From: a bacterium
GTDB taxonomy: Bacteria > Hydrothermota > 32-111
Direction: 5' to 3'
DNA length: 33,901 nt
Assembly (NCBI GenBank): GCA_050239825.1
Contig: JBFXGO010000025.1
Location: 1 to 33,901 of the forward strand
Shown here: positions 27,751 to 33,901 of the stretch, one piece after another
Layout: every line of letters starts with the position of its first letter
Numbering within the stretch: position 1 is the stretch's first letter
Translations under genes and position numbers: made by a program
The notes under the pieces: generated by a model
Databases searched by the model: none
Told to the model about the DNA's origin: nothing
What the model saw: only the letters and a program-made list of their open reading frames with translations

Positions 27751-27774
27751 ATACGGAGGAAAGATTGACAGAGA
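27751..27774 (+). repeat. 24-bp exact direct repeat, copy 1 (contains RBS and TTG start)
   Basis: ATACGGAGGAAAGATTGACAGAGA, identical to 30747-30770. Confidence 0.9.
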
Positions 27775-28880
27775 ACGGAAAGAACACAGAAATACAAAAA
27801 CAGTTTCCGGTTCAGAAAATCGAAACAAAGAGAATGATAATAATGACTATGCCGGTTGTTTTCATTGATAAACTCATTGTGAATGATGACACAGCATATT
27901 CGGATTATAACATCGTGCAGACAAATGAATGGCTGAAAAATGAATTCCATGAAATAATTTCAAAGATAAGAGAAGGAATGACTGAAGAAAAAGAGGCAAG
28001 CGGATTTGATGCTTGGATATTCATTGATAAAACGGACAGAACGATTATTGGAGACGGAGGATTCAAGGGAGAGCCGGATGCCGAAGGCAGAATTGACATA
28101 GGATATGGAATTGTAGCGAGCAGAAGGGGAAATGGATACGGGTTTGAAGCAGTATCAGCCCTTATAGAATGGGGCTTCAAGCAGAAAAAAGTAAAAGTTA
28201 TAACGGCTGACTGCAATCTTGATAACACAGCTTCTCAGAATCTTCTTGATAAAATAGGAATGAAAAGAGTAAGATCGGATGAGACTCTGACTTTTTTCGA
28301 ACTTAAAAAGAACCAATACAAAGGCGAACCGTATAATTCAATCTGGTTCAGAAGACTCACAGAAGTTGATCTGAAGCTTATGACTCAATGGCTCAGTGCG
28401 GATTTTGTGAATGAGTGGTATAAGATGGATGATACTTCTTTTGAAAAAGTCAGTGCAAAATACCTTCCGAGAATAAATGGGGAGGAACCGACAGAATGCT
28501 ATATCGCAATGCATTTTGACAAACCTATAGGGTTTTTGCAGACCTACTTTATAAAAGACTACCCTGATTACAATAAATATGTGCAGGCGGATGACAAGAC
28601 AGCAGGCGCAGATATTTTCATAGGAGAGGAAGAGTATATTCACAAAGGATGGGGAACTGCAATTCTCAGAAAATTCATTGATGAAGTGATATTCTGCAAA
28701 GAAAATATTGATTCATGCATAATGGGTCCTGATCCGGAGAATGTTACTGCAATAAAAACATACGAGAAATTGGGTTTCAAATATTTACGAACAATCCGCA
28801 ATTTTGAAGAAGGTTCTGACGAGTATCTTATGGAACTAAAAAACCCCAAAAGCAAAATCTATTCATCCCAAGAAATGTAA
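27765..28880 (+). CDS. Tandem GNAT acetyltransferase (RimJ/RimL-like domain plus AAC(6')-like domain)
   Basis: Domain 1: IGDGGFKG.P...IDIGYGI...RGNGYG...N.ASQ.LL.K.G. Domain 2: PIGFLQ...GADIFIGE..YIHKGWGT...PDPEN..AIKTYEKLGF. GGAGG then TTG start. Confidence 0.88.
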   Translation: MTENGKNTEIQKQFPVQKIETKRMIIMTMPVVFIDKLIVNDDTAYSDYNIVQTNEWLKNEFHEIISKIREGMTEEKEASGFDAWIFIDKTDRTIIGDGGFKGEPDAEGRIDIGYGIVASRRGNGYGFEAVSALIEWGFKQKKVKVITADCNLDNTASQNLLDKIGMKRVRSDETLTFFELKKNQYKGEPYNSIWFRRLTEVDLKLMTQWLSADFVNEWYKMDDTSFEKVSAKYLPRINGEEPTECYIAMHFDKPIGFLQTYFIKDYPDYNKYVQADDKTAGADIFIGEEEYIHKGWGTAILRKFIDEVIFCKENIDSCIMGPDPENVTAIKTYEKLGFKYLRTIRNFEEGSDEYLMELKNPKSKIYSSQEM

Positions 28881-28920
28881 AAACACCGACATATCGATTT
28901 GGATTTCTATAAAGTTTCAC

Positions 28921-28948
28921 TTGACAAAATATAAGAAAATGTTATAAT
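28921..28948 (+). promoter_or_regulatory. Strong sigma70-type promoter for the XRE/ImmA gene
   Basis: TTGACA (28921-26), 16 bp spacer, TG-n-TATAAT (28943-48); RBS AGGAGG 28958-63. Confidence 0.75.
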
Positions 28949-28967
28949 TTTAGCATTAGGAGGTAAA

Positions 28968-30098
28968 ATGTATAACAAAATAGGTGATAAAATCAAAAAA
29001 GAGAGAGAGTGTGCGGGCTTAAGTCAAAGGGAATTGGCTGAAAAAGCGGGTTACAACAATTATCAGACTCTTTTGAAGATTGAAAAGGGCGATAGAAACA
29101 TCACGATAGGAGACCTTGGAAGGATTTCCGAGGCATTGAATCTTAATATGAATTATTTTCTCTTTGAAAAGGAACAAAAAGATTATCCTGTATTATGGAG
29201 AGAGTGCAAGGATATAAAAGCATGTAAAATCTATGAGAATAGGCTCAAAACATACACTGACAATTATTTTCATTTACGTAAGCTTTTAGATTTGCATATT
29301 GACAATTTCATTCCTGAAAATGTGAACGACTTTATTGAAAGATATTCCGATTTTCTTACTGACAGATATAAGCTTGCCTCTGAACTTGCTGATGATTTTA
29401 GAAGGAGTTTTAATCTTGGTGATTATCCTGCAGACACCCTCATGAATGCGATTGCAGACAAAGGAATTTTAGTGTTCAGTTTTAATATGGAAGATGCCGG
29501 TTCCGCCGCGTCTTATGTGACTCCTAATGGTGCATCAATTCTATTGAACTCGAAGGAATCTCCATGGCGGAAATTTTTTGATATAGGACATGAATTGTAT
29601 CATATACTTACATGGAATCTATTGGATTATACTATGCATGATTATAAGTTAAGAGACAGTGATGCGGAAGAGCATTTTGCCAACGCATTTTCGGCAAATC
29701 TTCTGATGCCGAAATCTTCAATAAGAAAGGAGATAAATTCTCTCTCCTCAATTGATCAGATAAATGAGAGTTTTATTTGGAGAATGGCTGTAAAATTCAA
29801 AGTGTCAGTGGATGCTCTAATGAATCGTCTTGAATTTTTGCAAATCATTGATGAAAAAAAGAAAGATGCAATAAAAGCGACTTGTGTAAAAAAAGATTTT
29901 TGGAGAGAGTATAATAAAAAGAACAGCAAGGAATGCTGTCAGAAAAGTAAAGATGAATATGACGAGTCGTACTTCACTCTTGTTTATTCAGCTTGGATAT
30001 CTGAAAGAATAACAAAAATGAAGATGGCTGAATATCTCAACAAGAATATCGGGGAAATTGATTATTATCTAAAACAAAGGGGATTGGCTTATGAATAG
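28968..30098 (+). CDS. XRE-family HTH fused to an ImmA/IrrE (COG2856) Zn-metallopeptidase domain
   Basis: IGDKIKKERECAGLSQRELAEKAG...IEKGDR HTH; R.FFDIGHELYH (HExxH); EHFANAFSANLLMP. Confidence 0.93.
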   Translation: MYNKIGDKIKKERECAGLSQRELAEKAGYNNYQTLLKIEKGDRNITIGDLGRISEALNLNMNYFLFEKEQKDYPVLWRECKDIKACKIYENRLKTYTDNYFHLRKLLDLHIDNFIPENVNDFIERYSDFLTDRYKLASELADDFRRSFNLGDYPADTLMNAIADKGILVFSFNMEDAGSAASYVTPNGASILLNSKESPWRKFFDIGHELYHILTWNLLDYTMHDYKLRDSDAEEHFANAFSANLLMPKSSIRKEINSLSSIDQINESFIWRMAVKFKVSVDALMNRLEFLQIIDEKKKDAIKATCVKKDFWREYNKKNSKECCQKSKDEYDESYFTLVYSAWISERITKMKMAEYLNKNIGEIDYYLKQRGLAYE

Positions 30099-30770: not shown

Positions 30771-30865
30771 GTGTAAAGAATCCATGCATTATCCCTCAGA
30801 ATTGCAATTTTTACCTCCTGTAAGATTATTATAACTATTCCGTCGATAAATGCAACCGAGGCAGC

Positions 30866-30922
30866 TCAATATACAGGGGTTACCCCCTGTATGTTGACAA
30901 ACCATCATTCATATTGTATTAT
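30866..30922 (+). promoter_or_regulatory. 14-bp-stem inverted repeat overlapping a sigma70-type promoter
   Basis: TCAATATACAGGGG-TTAC-CCCCTGTATGTTGA (30866-30897); TTGACA 30894-99, 17 bp spacer, TATTAT 30917-22. Confidence 0.6.
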
Positions 30923-30961
30923 TTACACTATATGAGGACACTATCGCTGAAAAACTCGGAT

Positions 30962-31114
30962 CTGCTTGAAGGCGGCACGTACCTTAGATATATTCAAGAA
31001 CTGCTTGGTCATACAAGTTCTAAAACTACAGAAATATATACGCATGTAAGCCAGAAGTCATTGGGAAAGATAAAGAGTCCATTAGACACTTTAAATTTGA
31101 AGAAAGGAGGTTGA
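30962..31114 (+). pseudogene. C-terminal remnant of a tyrosine recombinase (integron-integrase-like)
   Basis: [30 protein letters not shown]...IKSPLD retains the catalytic H and Y and the SPLD tail. The HxxR box and everything upstream are missing. Confidence 0.88.
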
Positions 31115-31171
31115 AGCTGACAATATTTGTTAATAAAGAGGAGAAATCTGGGTTTTCGCCCATAGTAAAAA

Positions 31172-31242
31172 TATCCGCATTGCGTCTACACCACCAAATG
31201 AGGGATATATACGCAGTAATTACGGATACAATCGAGTTATCT
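31172..31242 (+). other. attI-like primary recombination site (predicted crossover G31236|T31237)
   Basis: GTTATCT at 31236-42 is the exact reverse complement of AGATAAC at the end of cassette 1. It is preceded by an imperfect palindrome (TATCCG..TGCGT / ACGCA..CGGATA). Confidence 0.65.
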
Positions 31243-32362
31243 GCAATTTCGGCTAATAAGGAGATGACAAAATGAGTCTATGGTTGGTAAGAGCAGGAAG
31301 ACATGGAGAACAAGAACAAGGGGCACTCGATAACAATGTAGTGACAATCGGATGGAACGAGTTTGATGATTTATCAAAAATAAAATCCAGAGAAGAATTA
31401 ACGGAGTTATATCTAAAACTGAATCCCGGCTCTAAAAAAATGAAAGTGGCAAATGAAGTTGGTCAGATATGGAGATTCATTCGGGAAATTCAAAAAGGTG
31501 ACCTTGTGGCTCTCCCGCTAAAGATGCAATCTGGGATTTCAATTGGTAAAGTAGAAAGCGACTATGAATATAAGGAAATAACTCCAAATATAAAACACAT
31601 CAGACATGTAAAATGGATTAAAACAATCCCCAGGTCCGCGTTTGACCAAGATATCCTTTATTCACTTGGCGCATTTATGACGGTCTGCCAGATAGAAAGA
31701 AACGAAGCGGAAAATCGTGTTAAACAACTCCTTGAAGGAGAGGTTACCCCGACAGAAGAAGGTGAGCCTGAAGGTGAAGGAGTTATTGACATTGAGGAAT
31801 ATGCTAATGACCAACTCATCAAATACATAGATAGAAAATTTAAAGGGCATAATTTAGCAAGATTGGTTAATGTGATTTTGAAAGTTCAAGGGTATACAAC
31901 AACGATGTCTCCACCCGGAGCTGATGGTGGAGTGGACATTTTGGCCTCAGGAGGGCCCTTGGGCTTTGATAATCCAAAAATATGTGTCCAAGTAAAATCA
32001 TCATCTTCTCCCGTCGATGTTAAAATATTAAGGGATCTCAAAGGTACGATGAGAGATGTAAAGGCCGAACAAGGACTATTAATTTCTTGGTCTGGTTTTA
32101 AAGATACAGTTATTAGAGATGCAAAAAATGATTTCTTCTCCATCCGATTGTGGGATCAGGGTGATTTACTTGAAGAAATTTTCAAATATTACGATCGTTT
32201 TGATGATGAGCTTAAGGCGGAATTGCCATTAAAAAGGATATGGGGGTTAATTATTGAAGAATAAAGGAGCCGAAACAGTAGATAACAGGCGTGTATCTGG
32301 CTACGTGCCGTCGGCACTTCGTCCAAATCCTGCTTCGCAGGACTTCAGATTCGCTCGGAACG
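31237..32362 (+). mobile_element. Integron gene cassette 1
   Basis: One promoterless ORF with RBS, bounded by G|TTATCT and a downstream attC whose R'' is complementary to it. Confidence 0.8.
31272..32264 (+). CDS. Mrr-family (COG4127-like) restriction endonuclease
   Basis: N-terminal WLVRAG..GE...IGW...GDLVALP...R.VKW domain; C-terminal Mrr catalytic ADGGVDILA...CVQVKS...GLLISWSGF. Confidence 0.9.
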   Translation: MSLWLVRAGRHGEQEQGALDNNVVTIGWNEFDDLSKIKSREELTELYLKLNPGSKKMKVANEVGQIWRFIREIQKGDLVALPLKMQSGISIGKVESDYEYKEITPNIKHIRHVKWIKTIPRSAFDQDILYSLGAFMTVCQIERNEAENRVKQLLEGEVTPTEEGEPEGEGVIDIEEYANDQLIKYIDRKFKGHNLARLVNVILKVQGYTTTMSPPGADGGVDILASGGPLGFDNPKICVQVKSSSSPVDVKILRDLKGTMRDVKAEQGLLISWSGFKDTVIRDAKNDFFSIRLWDQGDLLEEIFKYYDRFDDELKAELPLKRIWGLIIEE

Positions 32363-32368
32363 TTCTAC
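32280..32368 (+). other. attC site of cassette 1 (89 bp, branched terminal structure)
   Basis: R'' AGATAAC (32280-86); L'' region GCGTGTATCTG pairs with CAGATTCGC (32346-54) with bulged bases; internal hairpins GTGCC-GTC-GGCAC and TCCTGC-TTC-GCAGGA; R' GTTCTAC (32362-68). Confidence 0.82.
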
Positions 32369-33597
32369 GCAATTCGTTGTAATTAAAATAGGAGGATATT
32401 ATGAGCATAATTGATTATTTATTAAACACACCTGATGTAATTAAAGGAAAACGTATTCAGCAAATATTATCAATATGTGGTGATGGAAAATTACTTGATA
32501 ATAATAATACATCTTTAGAATTTCGAGAATATTTGGATAATATAGAATCTGAATTAATCGTTAAATATGCTAATGAATGTTTGAATAAATTTGAAGATAG
32601 TGGTTTCGCACTACAAGATTTGATAAATCAAACAGGGAAAAGATTAGGTTTTACTGTTAAATTTGGTTTATATAGAGGAAAACCAGGTGATATTGGACAT
32701 GATGGTTTGTGGCAAACAACAAATAATTATAATATTATAATTGAAGTTAAAACTACTGATGCATTTAGTATTAATTTAGATAATATTGCTGAATACAGAA
32801 AAAAACTAATTGAAAATCATGAAATTGATGAAGATAATTCATCAATATTAATAGTTGTTGGCAGACAAGATACTGGAGGTTTAGAATCTCAAATTAGGGG
32901 TTCGAAATACGCATGGGATATAAGATTAATAAGCGTTGATTCATTATTAAAATTAATGAAATTAAAAGAAAATTTTGATGAACCTTCAATGATTCAAAAG
33001 ATTACTGATATATTAATACCTATGGAATATACAAGAGTTGATGAAATAATTAATTTAGTATTTAATGCAACAAATGAAATTATACAAGACAATATTTCTA
33101 ACAATAATATTGTTATTGATAGTAGCAATAATGAGAATATAATCCCAAGATTTACTCCAGTGAATTTTCATAGTTTATGTATTGATAGAATTTCAAATCA
33201 TTTTAATAAAATATTTATTAAAAAAACAAAGGCCAGTTTTATTTCTTCAGACAATTCAATTAAATTAATTTGTATAATTTCAAAAGAATATTTAGTTTCA
33301 AATAATTATAAATATTGGTTTGCTTTCCATCCCCATTATAAAGACTATTTGGATAATTTTGCTCAATCTTATATTGTATTTGGGTGCGGTAATGAAAATC
33401 AATTAATTAAAATACCATTTAGTAATTTTAAATCTTGGCTTGATGGTCTAAATATAACTGAAATTGGTGATAAATTCTATTGGCATGTACATATAATTAA
33501 AAAAGAAAATAAGTATTATTTATTAAGAAAAACTGAATTTGAACATATTGATATAACAAATTTTCTTTTATAATATTATAACGAACATGCGTAGAAC
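32363..33597 (+). mobile_element. Integron gene cassette 2 (attC interrupted by IS)
   Basis: Starts at G|TTCTACGC and ends with the complementary GCGTAGAAC (33589-97); contains a single, very AT-rich ORF. Confidence 0.75.
32401..33573 (+). CDS. Uncharacterised PD-(D/E)xK-type nuclease (restriction-endonuclease-like)
   Basis: FALQDLIN..GKRLGF.V..G.YRG...IGHDGLW......IIIEVKTT fits a (Q/E)..D..ExK nuclease core. Distinct C-terminal domain (YWFAFHP...FYWHVHI). RBS AGGAGG. Confidence 0.72.
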   Translation: MSIIDYLLNTPDVIKGKRIQQILSICGDGKLLDNNNTSLEFREYLDNIESELIVKYANECLNKFEDSGFALQDLINQTGKRLGFTVKFGLYRGKPGDIGHDGLWQTTNNYNIIIEVKTTDAFSINLDNIAEYRKKLIENHEIDEDNSSILIVVGRQDTGGLESQIRGSKYAWDIRLISVDSLLKLMKLKENFDEPSMIQKITDILIPMEYTRVDEIINLVFNATNEIIQDNISNNNIVIDSSNNENIIPRFTPVNFHSLCIDRISNHFNKIFIKKTKASFISSDNSIKLICIISKEYLVSNNYKYWFAFHPHYKDYLDNFAQSYIVFGCGNENQLIKIPFSNFKSWLDGLNITEIGDKFYWHVHIIKKENKYYLLRKTEFEHIDITNFLL

Positions 33598-33901
33598 TAT
33601 AATGGCCTCTTGAAATAGGACACGATTTAGTGATAGAATGTGTTAAAAAAGGAGGCAGAAATGGACTCTAAGAGACACGAATCAGGATTCAAGGCGCGGG
33701 TGGCTTTAGCAGCAATAAGAGGAGAGAAGACATTGGCGGAATTATCGCAGGAATACGGAGTGCACCCGAATCAAATAAGCCGGTGGAAGAAGGAGGCGGA
33801 AGAGAACATGGTAAAAGTGTTCGAGCGTGATAAAGCGGAGAGTGCCTTGTTAAAGGAGAAGGAACAGCAGTTGGAGGAGACGCTAAAAAAGCTTGGTGAG
33901 G
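33598..33901 (+). mobile_element. IS3-family insertion sequence, left end (runs off the window)
   Basis: Abrupt composition change; IRL-like TATAATGGCCTCTTGAAATAGGACAC followed by RBS and OrfA. The exact first base is uncertain because IS3 ends are usually TG. Confidence 0.8.
33661..33901 (+). CDS. IS3-family transposase OrfA, 3'-partial
   Basis: MDSKRHESGFKARVALAAIRGEKTLAELSQEYGVHPNQISRWKK... (HTH_Tnp_1-type pattern followed by a leucine-zipper-like segment). Confidence 0.9.
   Translation, partial: MDSKRHESGFKARVALAAIRGEKTLAELSQEYGVHPNQISRWKKEAEENMVKVFERDKAESALLKEKEQQLEETLKKLGE

Follow-up and report, generated by a model that had tools for sequence, protein, structure and literature searches.

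The DNA analysed here (the window, meaning the whole 33,901-nt stretch) carries a decayed gene-cassette platform at 30960–33597, which consists of the 3′ remnant of a recombinase gene, a docking region, and two cassettes of one gene each. The window holds two recombination sites, of which one is complete and one is interrupted by an insertion element. The features are as follows.

30805–30963, + strand: copy of a ~155-bp repeated element, which abuts and truncates the recombinase gene and has copies elsewhere in the genome
30960–31114, + strand: 3′ remnant of a tyrosine recombinase gene, ~51 codons plus stop, of a HARP-domain, insertion-less IntI/XerA-like family
31115–31242, + strand: candidate attI-like docking region, ending in GTTATCT (31236–31242), with the cassette junction at G/TT
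31236–32361, + strand: cassette 1, with an ORF at 31272–32264 (330 aa) for an Mrr-type nuclease matching PDC-S02; its ends pair at 16/19 positions
32268–32368, + strand: attC-like site 1, matched by our covariance model R2 at 32277–32367 (44.5 bits, E = 2.5e-07)
32362–33597, + strand: cassette 2, with an ORF at 32401–33573 (390 aa) and an extended R″ arm at 33576–33597, including GTAGAAC at 33591–33597
33598–33901, + strand: left end of an IS3-type element whose insertion point immediately follows the R″ box, with the orfA ATG at 33661

An earlier note, made from the sequence alone, had recognized a tyrosine-recombinase C-terminus here, and the frame at 30914–31114 indeed matches PF00589 (E = 9e-07, profile positions 138–170 of 172). 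The remnant matches the last 45 positions of TIGR02249 (271–315) with 45 bits and is 89% identical to residues 319–371 of protein P0002. Comparison with a longer, 133-aa fragment on contig C7 of the same genome shows that true homology begins at ~30960–30968. The repeated element that adjoins it is found at 92–96% identity in contigs C40, C61, C17, and C66 and in part in C48. It contains a strong promoter-like match (TTGACA-17-TATTAT, 30894–30922, 11/12) aimed into the array; no such match is found on the + strand at 30994–31341, the scan being a weak consensus test from which an absence of cassette promoters is not demonstrable. The two remnants have the recombinase end and the docking region in common and then continue into different cassettes. 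The docking region is near-identical in both loci, with identity unbroken up to GAGTTAT, 122 bp past the stop, and collapsing thereafter, which bears out the GTT site proposed at this position. By its sequence and placement, the region is a likely attI-type insertion site beside the integrase gene.

Both ORFs reported previously are present. The product of cassette 1 contains an Mrr_cat domain (E = 2.5e-21) and matches the candidate anti-phage PDC-S02 over its full length (PADLOC, E = 2e-135, residues 1–326). The cassette 2 ORF lies at 0.20–0.26 in the GC profile and has no family match in Pfam, NCBIfam, or PADLOC; its atlas neighbors are auto-named “Restriction endonuclease” (score 0.98, TM 0.86), a lead that would make both cassettes nuclease-like and cassette 2 restriction-endonuclease-like. 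The IS3-type element (HTH_Tnp_1, E = 1.5e-06) has removed the remainder of site 2 and anything beyond it, and six other contigs contain its first ~120–137 bp amid unrelated flanking sequence.

The first bases of each cassette had been described as the reverse complement of the box that follows its stop codon. These boxes are real in both cassettes and longer than first noticed. In cassette 1, GTTATCTGCAATTTCGGCT agrees with the reverse complement of 32268–32286 at 16 of 19 positions (13/16 beyond GTT), and 13/16 is not attained by any of the window’s 2785 background GTT/AAC pairs. In cassette 2, agreement covers the first 10 bases and, once a 1-nt shift is allowed, resumes at TTCGTT and TAA; the ungapped score of 9/16 is reached by 26 of the 2785 background pairs. 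The hybrid pair at site 1, between R″ of cassette 1 and R′ of cassette 2, scores only 5/16, which is what integron cassettes should show. The first 16 bases of 44 cassettes from related loci behave in the same manner: the cassette’s own 3′ end is the better pairing partner in 40 and the adjacent site in 2, with 2 ties (means of 9.84/13 versus 5.80/13; Wilcoxon p = 4e-08). The cassette boundary thus lies at G/TT, with a start complementary to the cassette’s own 3′ inverse core. Cassette 1 is also seen in a second context, as 37 of the 39 bases at its 5′ end (counted by eye) recur immediately after a different R2 site in L114, a metagenome contig, and divergence sets in exactly before GTT. Loci L120 and L126 likewise begin GTTATCT. 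Among metagenome loci with cassette 1 homologues, 19 of 20 have no R2 site, so that this gene family is either mostly not borne on cassettes or associated with site types that escape the model.

Site 1 has an extended R″ arm at 32268–32286 (AGATAAC at 32280–32286) and an R′ box, GTTCTAC, at 32362–32368, which enclose a degraded L stem and two inner hairpins (GTGCC/GGCAC and CCTGC/GCAGG). An archaeal chromosome (L080) contains a site that shares 92% identity with it over 72 nt; relative to this archaeal copy, the L stem of site 1 has a 2-nt insertion and one mismatch. The earlier note had described an 89-bp bulged hairpin in which the R and L boxes should pair (32280–32368). When the window copy is folded alone, this pairing is absent; the minimum-energy fold is two small hairpins rather than a single bulged one and is no better than that of shuffles (z = −0.32 for the top strand and −0.67 for the bottom strand). 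Folding as DNA, site by site, likewise gives no signal over shuffles. The proposed structure becomes apparent only by comparison with relatives. In an alignment of 73 sites, 94.9% of the stem cells are paired, against 70.2% in shuffled and 24.5–41% in slid alignments, and double-change stem cells number 244 versus 70, counts that lean toward structure because the alignment was fitted to the model. Pairing within the 10-bp stem stands at 94.2%, and 9 of its 10 pairs have changed on both sides. Six window-type sites, from five taxa together with both copies of the source genome, show compensatory changes in 12 of 18 pairs.

Across the related sites, which range from 56 to 215 nt, the R box TAAC/GTTA is near-invariant and the 5′ spacer measures ~3 nt and the 3′ spacer ~7 nt. 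The sites are therefore imperfect hairpins with an unpaired spacer and an L stem conserved by structure, as in attC, although the L stem of the window copy is degraded. The boxes are noncanonical, as had been claimed, only in part: 22 of 73 R′ boxes fit GTTRRRY and 23 of 73 R″ boxes fit RYYYAAC, with most others having T at position 5. Pairing of the R arm extends over ~18 bp and includes a conserved A–C mismatch at position 11 (A opposite C in 34 of 44). This mismatch of the top strand is a G–T wobble on the bottom strand, an asymmetry that is sensible only for a folded strand and that hints at recombination of the sites as folded bottom strands. Rfam contains no matching family (one match at E = 0.86 is noise), and a DNA search of the source genome with the site returns the C7 copy (79% identity) and otherwise just short chance matches. 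Two other site definitions were discarded: the strict motif CG[CT]A2-5CGTT is too narrow, and a self-built AAC-stem-GTT detector is too permissive to discriminate (439 matches on the + strand downstream versus 444 on the − strand). Covariance models replaced this detector.

With R2 at E ≤ 1, all 73 matches lie on the + strand, and the 71 further matches, spread over 27 bacterial and archaeal loci, all fall 3′ of the stop of a homologous recombinase gene and share its orientation; this compartment makes up only 14.4% of the strand-bases searched. In the entire 2.1-Mb source genome, R2 finds two sites, both at recombinase remnants. At least one match is present in 25 of the 35 related loci that have at least 1.5 kb downstream and none in the other 10, these loci having been selected via the recombinase, with stand-alone sites outside the sample. 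Arrays contain up to 11 model matches in 10 kb, and the ORFs of the 35 loci are diverse, many of them defence-like or without a Pfam family. Four relatives from the same phylum have family recombinase sequence with co-oriented R2 sites downstream, the recombinase frame being open at full length in two (G012 and G025) and in pieces in the other two (G029 and G037). The family is patchily distributed among relatives, frequently as broken copies, and also occurs in archaeal loci (L080, L023, L027, L051, and L058). The earlier note had proposed an atypical integron-like layout, with the array 3′ of the recombinase remnant and co-oriented with it, and had named homologues without downstream arrays, or a lack of related sites elsewhere, as evidence to the contrary. 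The covariance search supports the proposal: intact relatives show the identical order, homologues head cassette arrays, related sites are present in other loci downstream of recombinases, and co-orientation holds in the window and in all 27 related loci with R2 matches.

The supposition that the recombinase might be a true IntI, recognizable by the IntI-specific insertion, fails in the full-length homologues, which have 24 residues where VchIntIA has 66. TIGR02249 matches the family in two stretches, skipping approximately positions 180–235. The C7 fragment covers the position where the insertion would lie but does not contain it, and matches TIGR02249 at 236–315 only while matching NF040815 continuously from 146 to 260. 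All 8 full-length homologues (213.9–235.8 bits) and all 14 array-linked members (205.4–250.7 bits) score below the curated TIGR02249 cut-off of 265 bits. The NF040815 cut-off of 220 bits is passed by 8 of 8 full-length relatives (229.9–247.7 bits) and by 12 of 14 array-linked members, the window fragment being too short to score; the name of this model covers “integron integrase”, so passing it leaves function unsettled. The best match in the PDB, and the top Foldseek match, is VchIntIA (2A3V, E = 1e-43). The N-terminal domain has HARP matches in Pfam in 34 of 57 members. Fold searches with this domain are weak (Foldseek, SMARCAL1 HARP 4O66, E = 0.097, prob 0.94; VIA-align, T4 UvsW Z 6.8, XPB Z 5.7, and 4O66 Z 4.2, all below the ~8 that the tool calls common), and the label “HARP-like” therefore rests mainly on Pfam. 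These recombinases are closest to integron integrases and have a HARP-like N-terminus in place of the defining insertion, which suggests that integron logic is run here by a non-IntI enzyme. In the open-access literature searched, we found no earlier account of recombinases at cassette arrays that have the HARP domain and not the insertion.

These observations make it highly probable that the window array is the broken, inactive remains of an integron-like gene-capture platform. It is scarcely conceivable that the end complementarity arose by chance and that the 89-bp element is an ordinary hairpin, such as a terminator or a REP-like repeat. The fold that does no better than shuffles and the empty Rfam search would fit such an origin, but no background pair reaches the cassette 1 score, the R2 matches track recombinase loci (the only two model sites of the 2.1-Mb genome are both at remnants), and the near-identical archaeal site is hard to reconcile with it. 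Neither inner hairpin is called terminator-like, and the sole terminator call in 30800–33700 lies elsewhere, on the − strand; we therefore rejected this explanation. IS91-type elements with an upstream tyrosine recombinase that land in attC sites exist, and the remnant could be part of one, as a passenger in the array. One related locus (L068) does have an IS91-type transposase with its own integrase. However, a scan of 92 ORFs from the 35 loci detects Y2_Tnp/Zn_Tnp_IS91 at this one locus alone, encoded on the opposite strand alongside a separate integrase, whereas the recombinase is followed by a docking region and cassettes, not a transposase, in both loci of the source genome and in 27 related ones. 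With no Y2/HUH transposase gene placed directly downstream of the recombinase in the 35 loci, we regard this origin as very improbable and rejected it. A classical integron remnant whose enzyme is a true IntI with the additional domain is similarly improbable. The SPLD-type C-terminal ending and the best PDB match do resemble VchIntIA, but the alignment, in which the C7 fragment and the full-length relatives alike have no insertion, and the scores below the TIGR02249 cut-off led us to reject it.

A reading that keeps this anatomy but gives it Xer/dif-like chemistry, with an Xer-like recombinase exchanging cassettes via double-stranded sites rather than a folded single strand, is unlikely. The family aligns unbroken to XerA and scores over the NF040815 cut-off, and it is without the IntI insertion, which is tied to single-strand attC recombination in the cited sections of PMC9024848. 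Against this, the L stem stays paired even though its sequence varies freely, as the 244 double-change cells attest, which argues for selection on intrastrand folding and not on a duplex read by protein. The A–C pair at arm position 11 makes a G–T wobble on the bottom strand only. Dif-type core sites are also much shorter than the related sites found here, with their 56–215 nt.

Returning to the integron-like platform, its intact form, as relatives show it, comprises a tyrosine recombinase of ~290–430 aa, a docking site ending in GTT roughly 80–170 bp past the recombinase stop (where sequence was inspected), and a series of co-oriented cassettes, most of them with one gene. The recombinase has a SAM-like core-binding domain between its HARP-like N-terminus and a catalytic domain from which the IntI insertion is absent. 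A site of 56–215 nt closes each cassette; it has an extended R arm (..nnCnnnTAAC), a short spacer that is unpaired, an L stem of ~10 bp that keeps its pairing with variable sequence, a variable tip, and the partner arm (AC/GTTAnnnG..). The recombinase probably catalyzes cassette exchange, with the site acting as a folded single strand, and crossover at G/TT would leave each cassette with first bases that pair with its own 3′ end, as a former circle should have. In the source genome, the repeated element cut down the recombinase gene and the IS cut the second site. No intact family recombinase is left in that genome, and with site 2 cut as well, both nuclease-type cassettes would be frozen in place. 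The locus has one complete site, one site cut after the R″ box, and a dead recombinase remnant, and it might count as an integrase-less cluster (CALIN), a class that requires at least two attC sites and no functional integrase nearby. While the window copy is dead, its value lies in clean comparative evidence, with two remnants in one genome followed by different first cassettes and one cassette in two contexts.

Integron searches, in the cited parts of PMC4889954 and PMC9024848, define the integrase by its extra domain, which is tied to folded single-strand sites and held necessary for attC recombination, and almost no complete integrons are reported there in Firmicutes, Bacteroidetes, or Nitrospira. 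The window and its relatives display the full cassette logic of integrons beside a recombinase family without the extra domain. If the enzyme acts on these sites, views on how integrons arose and on what the I2 region does have to be revised, an integrase can be assigned to many “integrase-less” arrays, and a large hidden pool of mobile cassettes becomes searchable, here with nuclease-type candidate anti-phage genes. We find the case evenly balanced as to whether the family constitutes a second widespread integron lineage, spanning archaea and bacteria (Bacillota, Bacteroidota, Nitrospirota, and Spirochaetota among them), whose integrase has no additional domain and relies on HARP-like and long-R-arm recognition. 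In such a lineage the I2/additional domain would never have been present or would have been lost, the HARP-like N-terminus might bind the junction, and the R arm would carry the fixed A–C mismatch. Were this true, single-strand cassette recombination would work without the IntI insertion, phyla said to lack integrons would hold many that are listed at best as integrase-less clusters, and the near-identical site in a bacterium and a Methanoperedenaceae chromosome would mark a cassette pool that crosses domains.

The closest counterparts are the sedentary chromosomal integrons, such as that of Vibrio cholerae with VchIntIA, the nearest in sequence and fold. They likewise have mostly one-gene cassettes in a single orientation, a docking site beside the recombinase, AAC…GTT site ends, an unpaired spacer, a covarying inner stem, and the common G/TT crossover with a cassette start that pairs with its own end. 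Unlike VchIntIA, the recombinases described here have no IntI-specific insertion and possess an extra HARP-like N-terminal domain, and their gene is co-oriented with the array where a classical intI is divergent. The R arm of a classical integron site is 7 bp, versus ~18 bp here. The alignment of the family with XerA (NF040815, PDB 5HXY) covers the entire core and is gap-free. XerA is present in single copy and resolves chromosome dimers at dif, whereas the family recombinase heads cassette arrays, has the HARP-like domain, and is patchily distributed.

Co-orientation has precedent, as a co-oriented minority exists among accepted integrons in the cited sections of PMC4889954. There, Cury et al. 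define integron-integrases by the intI_Cterm profile, with the inverted-integrase group included; going by that description, the Treponema-type integrons are set apart from the present family, which is without this region. In archaea, attI lies immediately downstream of intI, the arrays are mostly integrase-less clusters, and cassette sites are shared between domains, according to the cited parts of Ghaly et al. 2022 (PMC9668308). The near-identical site in L080 mirrors this cross-domain likeness, whereas the archaeal IntIs described there carry the IntI-specific additional domain that our recombinases do not have. Finally, the cited text of Cury et al. 2016 (PMC4889954) sets aside four PF00589-only integrases near attC sites as “not IntI”, placed between IntI and Xer and like ordinary integrases at patch III. 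This description fits the family reported here. Those four proteins co-localized with fewer than three attC sites in that text, while the present relatives head arrays of up to 11 matches per 10 kb.

The platform and the elements that adjoin it are arranged as follows.

30805–30963: ~155-bp repeated element adjoining the recombinase remnant; copies in contigs C40, C61, C17 and C66 of the source genome, and partly in C48
30914–31114, + strand: frame holding the tyrosine-recombinase 3' remnant; PF00589 at E 9e-07 (profile positions 138–170 of 172) and TIGR02249 positions 271–315
31272–32264, + strand: ORF1, the gene of cassette 1 (ORF call)
32401–33573, + strand: ORF2, the gene of cassette 2 (ORF call)
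from 33598: left end of an IS3-type element, directly after the R'' box of site 2, the site that follows cassette 2
from 33661: orfA of the IS3-type element (HTH_Tnp_1 match)

The match of the frame at 30914–31114 is confined to the end of the tyrosine-recombinase catalytic domain, and both ORFs follow on the same strand. GC content falls from ~0.36–0.41 in cassette 1 to 0.20–0.26 in cassette 2, as expected if the genes were acquired separately. The first 26.4 kb of the window are core chromosome, with ispD, ispF, surE, pcm, nadE, prfA, prmC, nadK, a RecN/SMC-type ATPase and priA (named from Pfam families), so that the platform lies in variable sequence bordering a housekeeping block. Just upstream of it, the accessory genes at 27765–30098 encode a protein with two GNAT acetyltransferase domains (27765–28880) and an HTH_3–Peptidase_M78 fusion of the ImmA/IrrE type (28968–30098).

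Cassette 1 begins at 31236 with GTTATCTGCAATTTCGGCT, and the reverse complement of 32268–32286 is GTTATCTACTGTTTCGGCT. The two agree at 16 of 19 positions (13 of 16 beyond the GTT), a stronger case than the earlier note had made for each cassette opening with the reverse complement of its own end, and the window's 2785 background GTT/AAC pairs all score below 13. Cassette 2 opens with GTTCTACGCAATTCGTTGTAA, and the reverse complement of its end is GTTCTACGCATGTTCGTTATAA; here too the claim holds, as the first ten bases agree and, after a 1-nt offset, so do TTCGTT and TAA. The ungapped score for this cassette is 9/16, a value reached by 26 of the 2785 background pairs. The arms that actually flank site 1, the complete site between the cassettes, match at only 5/16. 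Such a low score at the hybrid site, with high pairing of own ends, is exactly the look expected of integron cassettes. The 89-bp bulged hairpin described at this site is a weaker point: the element alone folds no better than shuffles (z −0.32 and −0.67), and the minimum-energy structure consists of two small hairpins.

A second locus of the source genome, on contig C7, carries a longer fragment (133 aa) of the same recombinase. Beyond it come the post-stop region seen in the window, a methyltransferase-like ORF of 290 aa and a related site. C7 and the window are near-identical from ~30968 to GAGTTAT (31234–31240) and unrelated directly beyond. The two loci thus have one docking site in common and different first cassettes, which is direct evidence of insertion at the GTT. 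The C7 cassette starts with GTTATACGCCATTTGG and ends with CCAAACGGCGTATAAC, 15 of 16 positions agreeing (counted by eye). Past the C7 site (L015:8852–9508), a short membrane-protein ORF ends abruptly, and a short ORF on the opposite strand resembles, from a reading of its translation, the start of a transposase. The C7 array also seems to have been cut by a mobile element.

Relatives of the C7 recombinase fragment number in the thousands; the best of full length are 290–430 aa long with 70–86% identity to the fragment. A scan of one genome per species gave 80 loci across many bacterial phyla and archaea. Window positions 32293–32364 share 92% identity over 72 nt with a site on a Methanoperedenaceae chromosome (L080:11067–11156), ~480 bp downstream of a fragment of the family recombinase and with an mcrC-family gene 1.4 kb away. 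This site type is present too in Thermodesulfobacterium, Gemmatimonadota and Ignavibacteriaceae loci. The consensus of six window-type sites (five taxa plus both copies of the source genome) is one 10-bp stem around two small hairpins, with compensatory changes in 12 of 18 pairs. A covariance model built from these six (R1) gave 27 matches at E ≤ 1, all on the recombinase strand, and the model rebuilt from the R1 matches (R2) gave 73 of 73 on that strand. The search with these models finds related sites elsewhere, and the homologues do have downstream arrays: 71 of the 73 R2 matches fall in 27 related loci, every one downstream of the recombinase stop, a compartment that makes up 14.4% of the sequence searched. 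Over the whole 2.1-Mb genome, R2 finds two sites only, site 1 of the window and the C7 site. In the 73-site alignment, which was fitted to the model, 94.9% of stem cells are paired (70.2% in shuffles, 24.5–41% when slid) and double-change cells number 244 versus 70. Each site runs from TAAC through ~3 unpaired nt into a stem whose two strands enclose a variable tip, then through ~7 unpaired nt with AC at their end to GTTA; the AAC-to-GTT length is 56–215 nt (median 115). Together the sites make up a conserved family with a common structure, linked to the recombinase.

In 44 cassettes with a model match at either end, the first 16 nt were compared with the cassette's own 3' arm and with the adjacent arm. 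Mean matches beyond the GTT, of 13 positions, are 9.84 for the own arm and 5.80 for the adjacent one; the own arm scores higher in 40 cassettes and lower in 2, with 2 ties (Wilcoxon p 4e-08). The cassettes behave like former circles. Arm pairing extends to about position 18. At position 11 after the G of GTT, A stands opposite C in 34 of the 44, and position 10 is often A opposite A; all three cassettes of the source genome have the position-11 mismatch too; we know of no counterpart of the position-11 mismatch in classical attC sites. Among 20 metagenome loci encoding ORF1 homologues, one (L114, 71% amino acid identity) has an R2 site directly upstream (2902–2970), and the 39 bases after it agree with the start of cassette 1 at 37 positions (GTTATCTGCAATTTCGGC.AATAAGGAGATGA.AAAATG). 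Before the GTT lies a different site in L114 and the docking region in the window. L120 and L126 also open with GTTATCT; the remaining loci of the 20 show no such cassette context.

The IntI-specific insertion, which the earlier note had proposed seeking in full-length homologues, is absent. All 8 full-length homologues score 213.9–235.8 bits with TIGR02249, below its cut-off of 265, and align in two stretches that skip approximately positions 180–235; with NF040815 ('site-specific tyrosine recombinase/integron integrase') they score 229.9–247.7, above the cut-off of 220. All 14 array-heading recombinases likewise fall below the TIGR02249 IntI cut-off. The closest solved structure is VchIntIA (2A3V, E 1e-43), residues 119–283 aligning with 13–179 and 308–380 with 246–318; the family has 24 residues where VchIntIA has 66, whereas it aligns with XerA in a single stretch. 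An AlphaFold model (pLDDT 85) has no extra helix at the insertion place and matches 2A3V first, then XerA. By the accepted test, the recombinase does not qualify as an IntI. Its N-terminal ~75 residues are modelled as a separate beta-beta-alpha-beta-beta-alpha domain; Pfam HARP matches 34 of 57 family members at E ≤ 0.1 (best 4.1e-05), and fold searches point weakly to the N-terminal domains of SMARCAL1 (HARP), XPB and T4 UvsW, which bind branched or damaged DNA. In Arundinibacter roseus (L046:11102–11446), the family recombinase is followed first by an ORF for a single-strand DNA-binding protein (SSB, E 5e-31), an intriguing neighbour if the system works, as presumed, on folded single strands.

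Other readings of the locus were weighed against these data. A true IntI is ruled out by the alignment, in which the insertion region is absent. Carriage as an IS91 passenger fails: of 35 loci, one has an IS91 transposase, which lies on the other strand and is accompanied by an integrase of its own. Chance fails against the strand agreement of R2 (73/73), the two sites in the genome and the cassette 1 score, seen in 0/2785 background pairs. The only live rival is about the chemistry, a double-strand, Xer-like exchange in place of a folded strand; against it, the stem covaries independently of sequence in the 73-site alignment and the position-11 mismatch is strand-asymmetric. An A-C on the top strand would be a G-T wobble on the bottom strand, a hint that is the sole clue to the folding strand. 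The observation in the earlier note is confirmed and its reading as an integron-like platform supported, with the qualifications that the recombinase fails the accepted IntI test and that the 89-bp element has no significant fold alone.

As to cargo, the match of ORF1 to PDC-S02, a candidate defence family, covers its whole length (E 2e-135). ORF2 has no family match; the Atlas clusters nearest to it carry the automatic name of restriction endonuclease, which is a lead only. The first 3 kb of related arrays hold SIR2, KAP NTPase, GmrSD, TIR, HEPN and NERD domain genes, along with restriction-modification genes and numerous ORFs with no assigned family.

No intact recombinase of the family is left in the source genome, which has just the two fragments and two Xer-like genes at 33–37% identity; the platform is dead there. 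Among 40 relatives the family is patchy: G012 and G025 have full-length open frames, G020 has a shorter one of 281 aa, and in G037, G029, G022, G016 and G015 the gene is broken or reduced to a short C-terminal piece. Relatives with sequence available have co-oriented R2 sites after the recombinase. The C-terminal 70–140 codons alone are kept in several relatives (the last five named) and twice in the source genome. This repeated survival of the 3' end beside the docking site may be beyond chance, for example through signals for cassette expression there. The ~155-bp repeat holds a short palindrome and a near-consensus promoter-like TTGACA-17-TATTAT (30894–30922) directed into the array, which might now drive the cassettes. 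The IS is a plain insertion, since other copies of its left end have unrelated flanks. The first ~120–137 bp of this element (33598–33901) recur in C18, C48, C55, C7, C61 and C45, and all of these copies except that in C18 run into a common short sequence in place of a transposase gene; the recurring ends have the look of a MITE-type element derived from the IS by deletion.

In the open-access literature searched, we found no account of an insertion-less, HARP-bearing recombinase family. The window contains a dead member of an integron variant that would appear to be undescribed in print. Cury et al. 2016 (PMC4889954) report 21 PF00589-only integrases beside attC sites, four of which fell between IntI and Xer with <3 sites each and were judged not IntI, and Firmicutes without any complete integron. 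Neron et al. 2022 (PMC9024848) count a single complete integron in Firmicutes and, for Nitrospira, two CALINs. In the archaeal integrons of Ghaly et al. 2022 (PMC9668308), attI lies just downstream of intI, and the archaeal IntIs are stated to have the additional domain.
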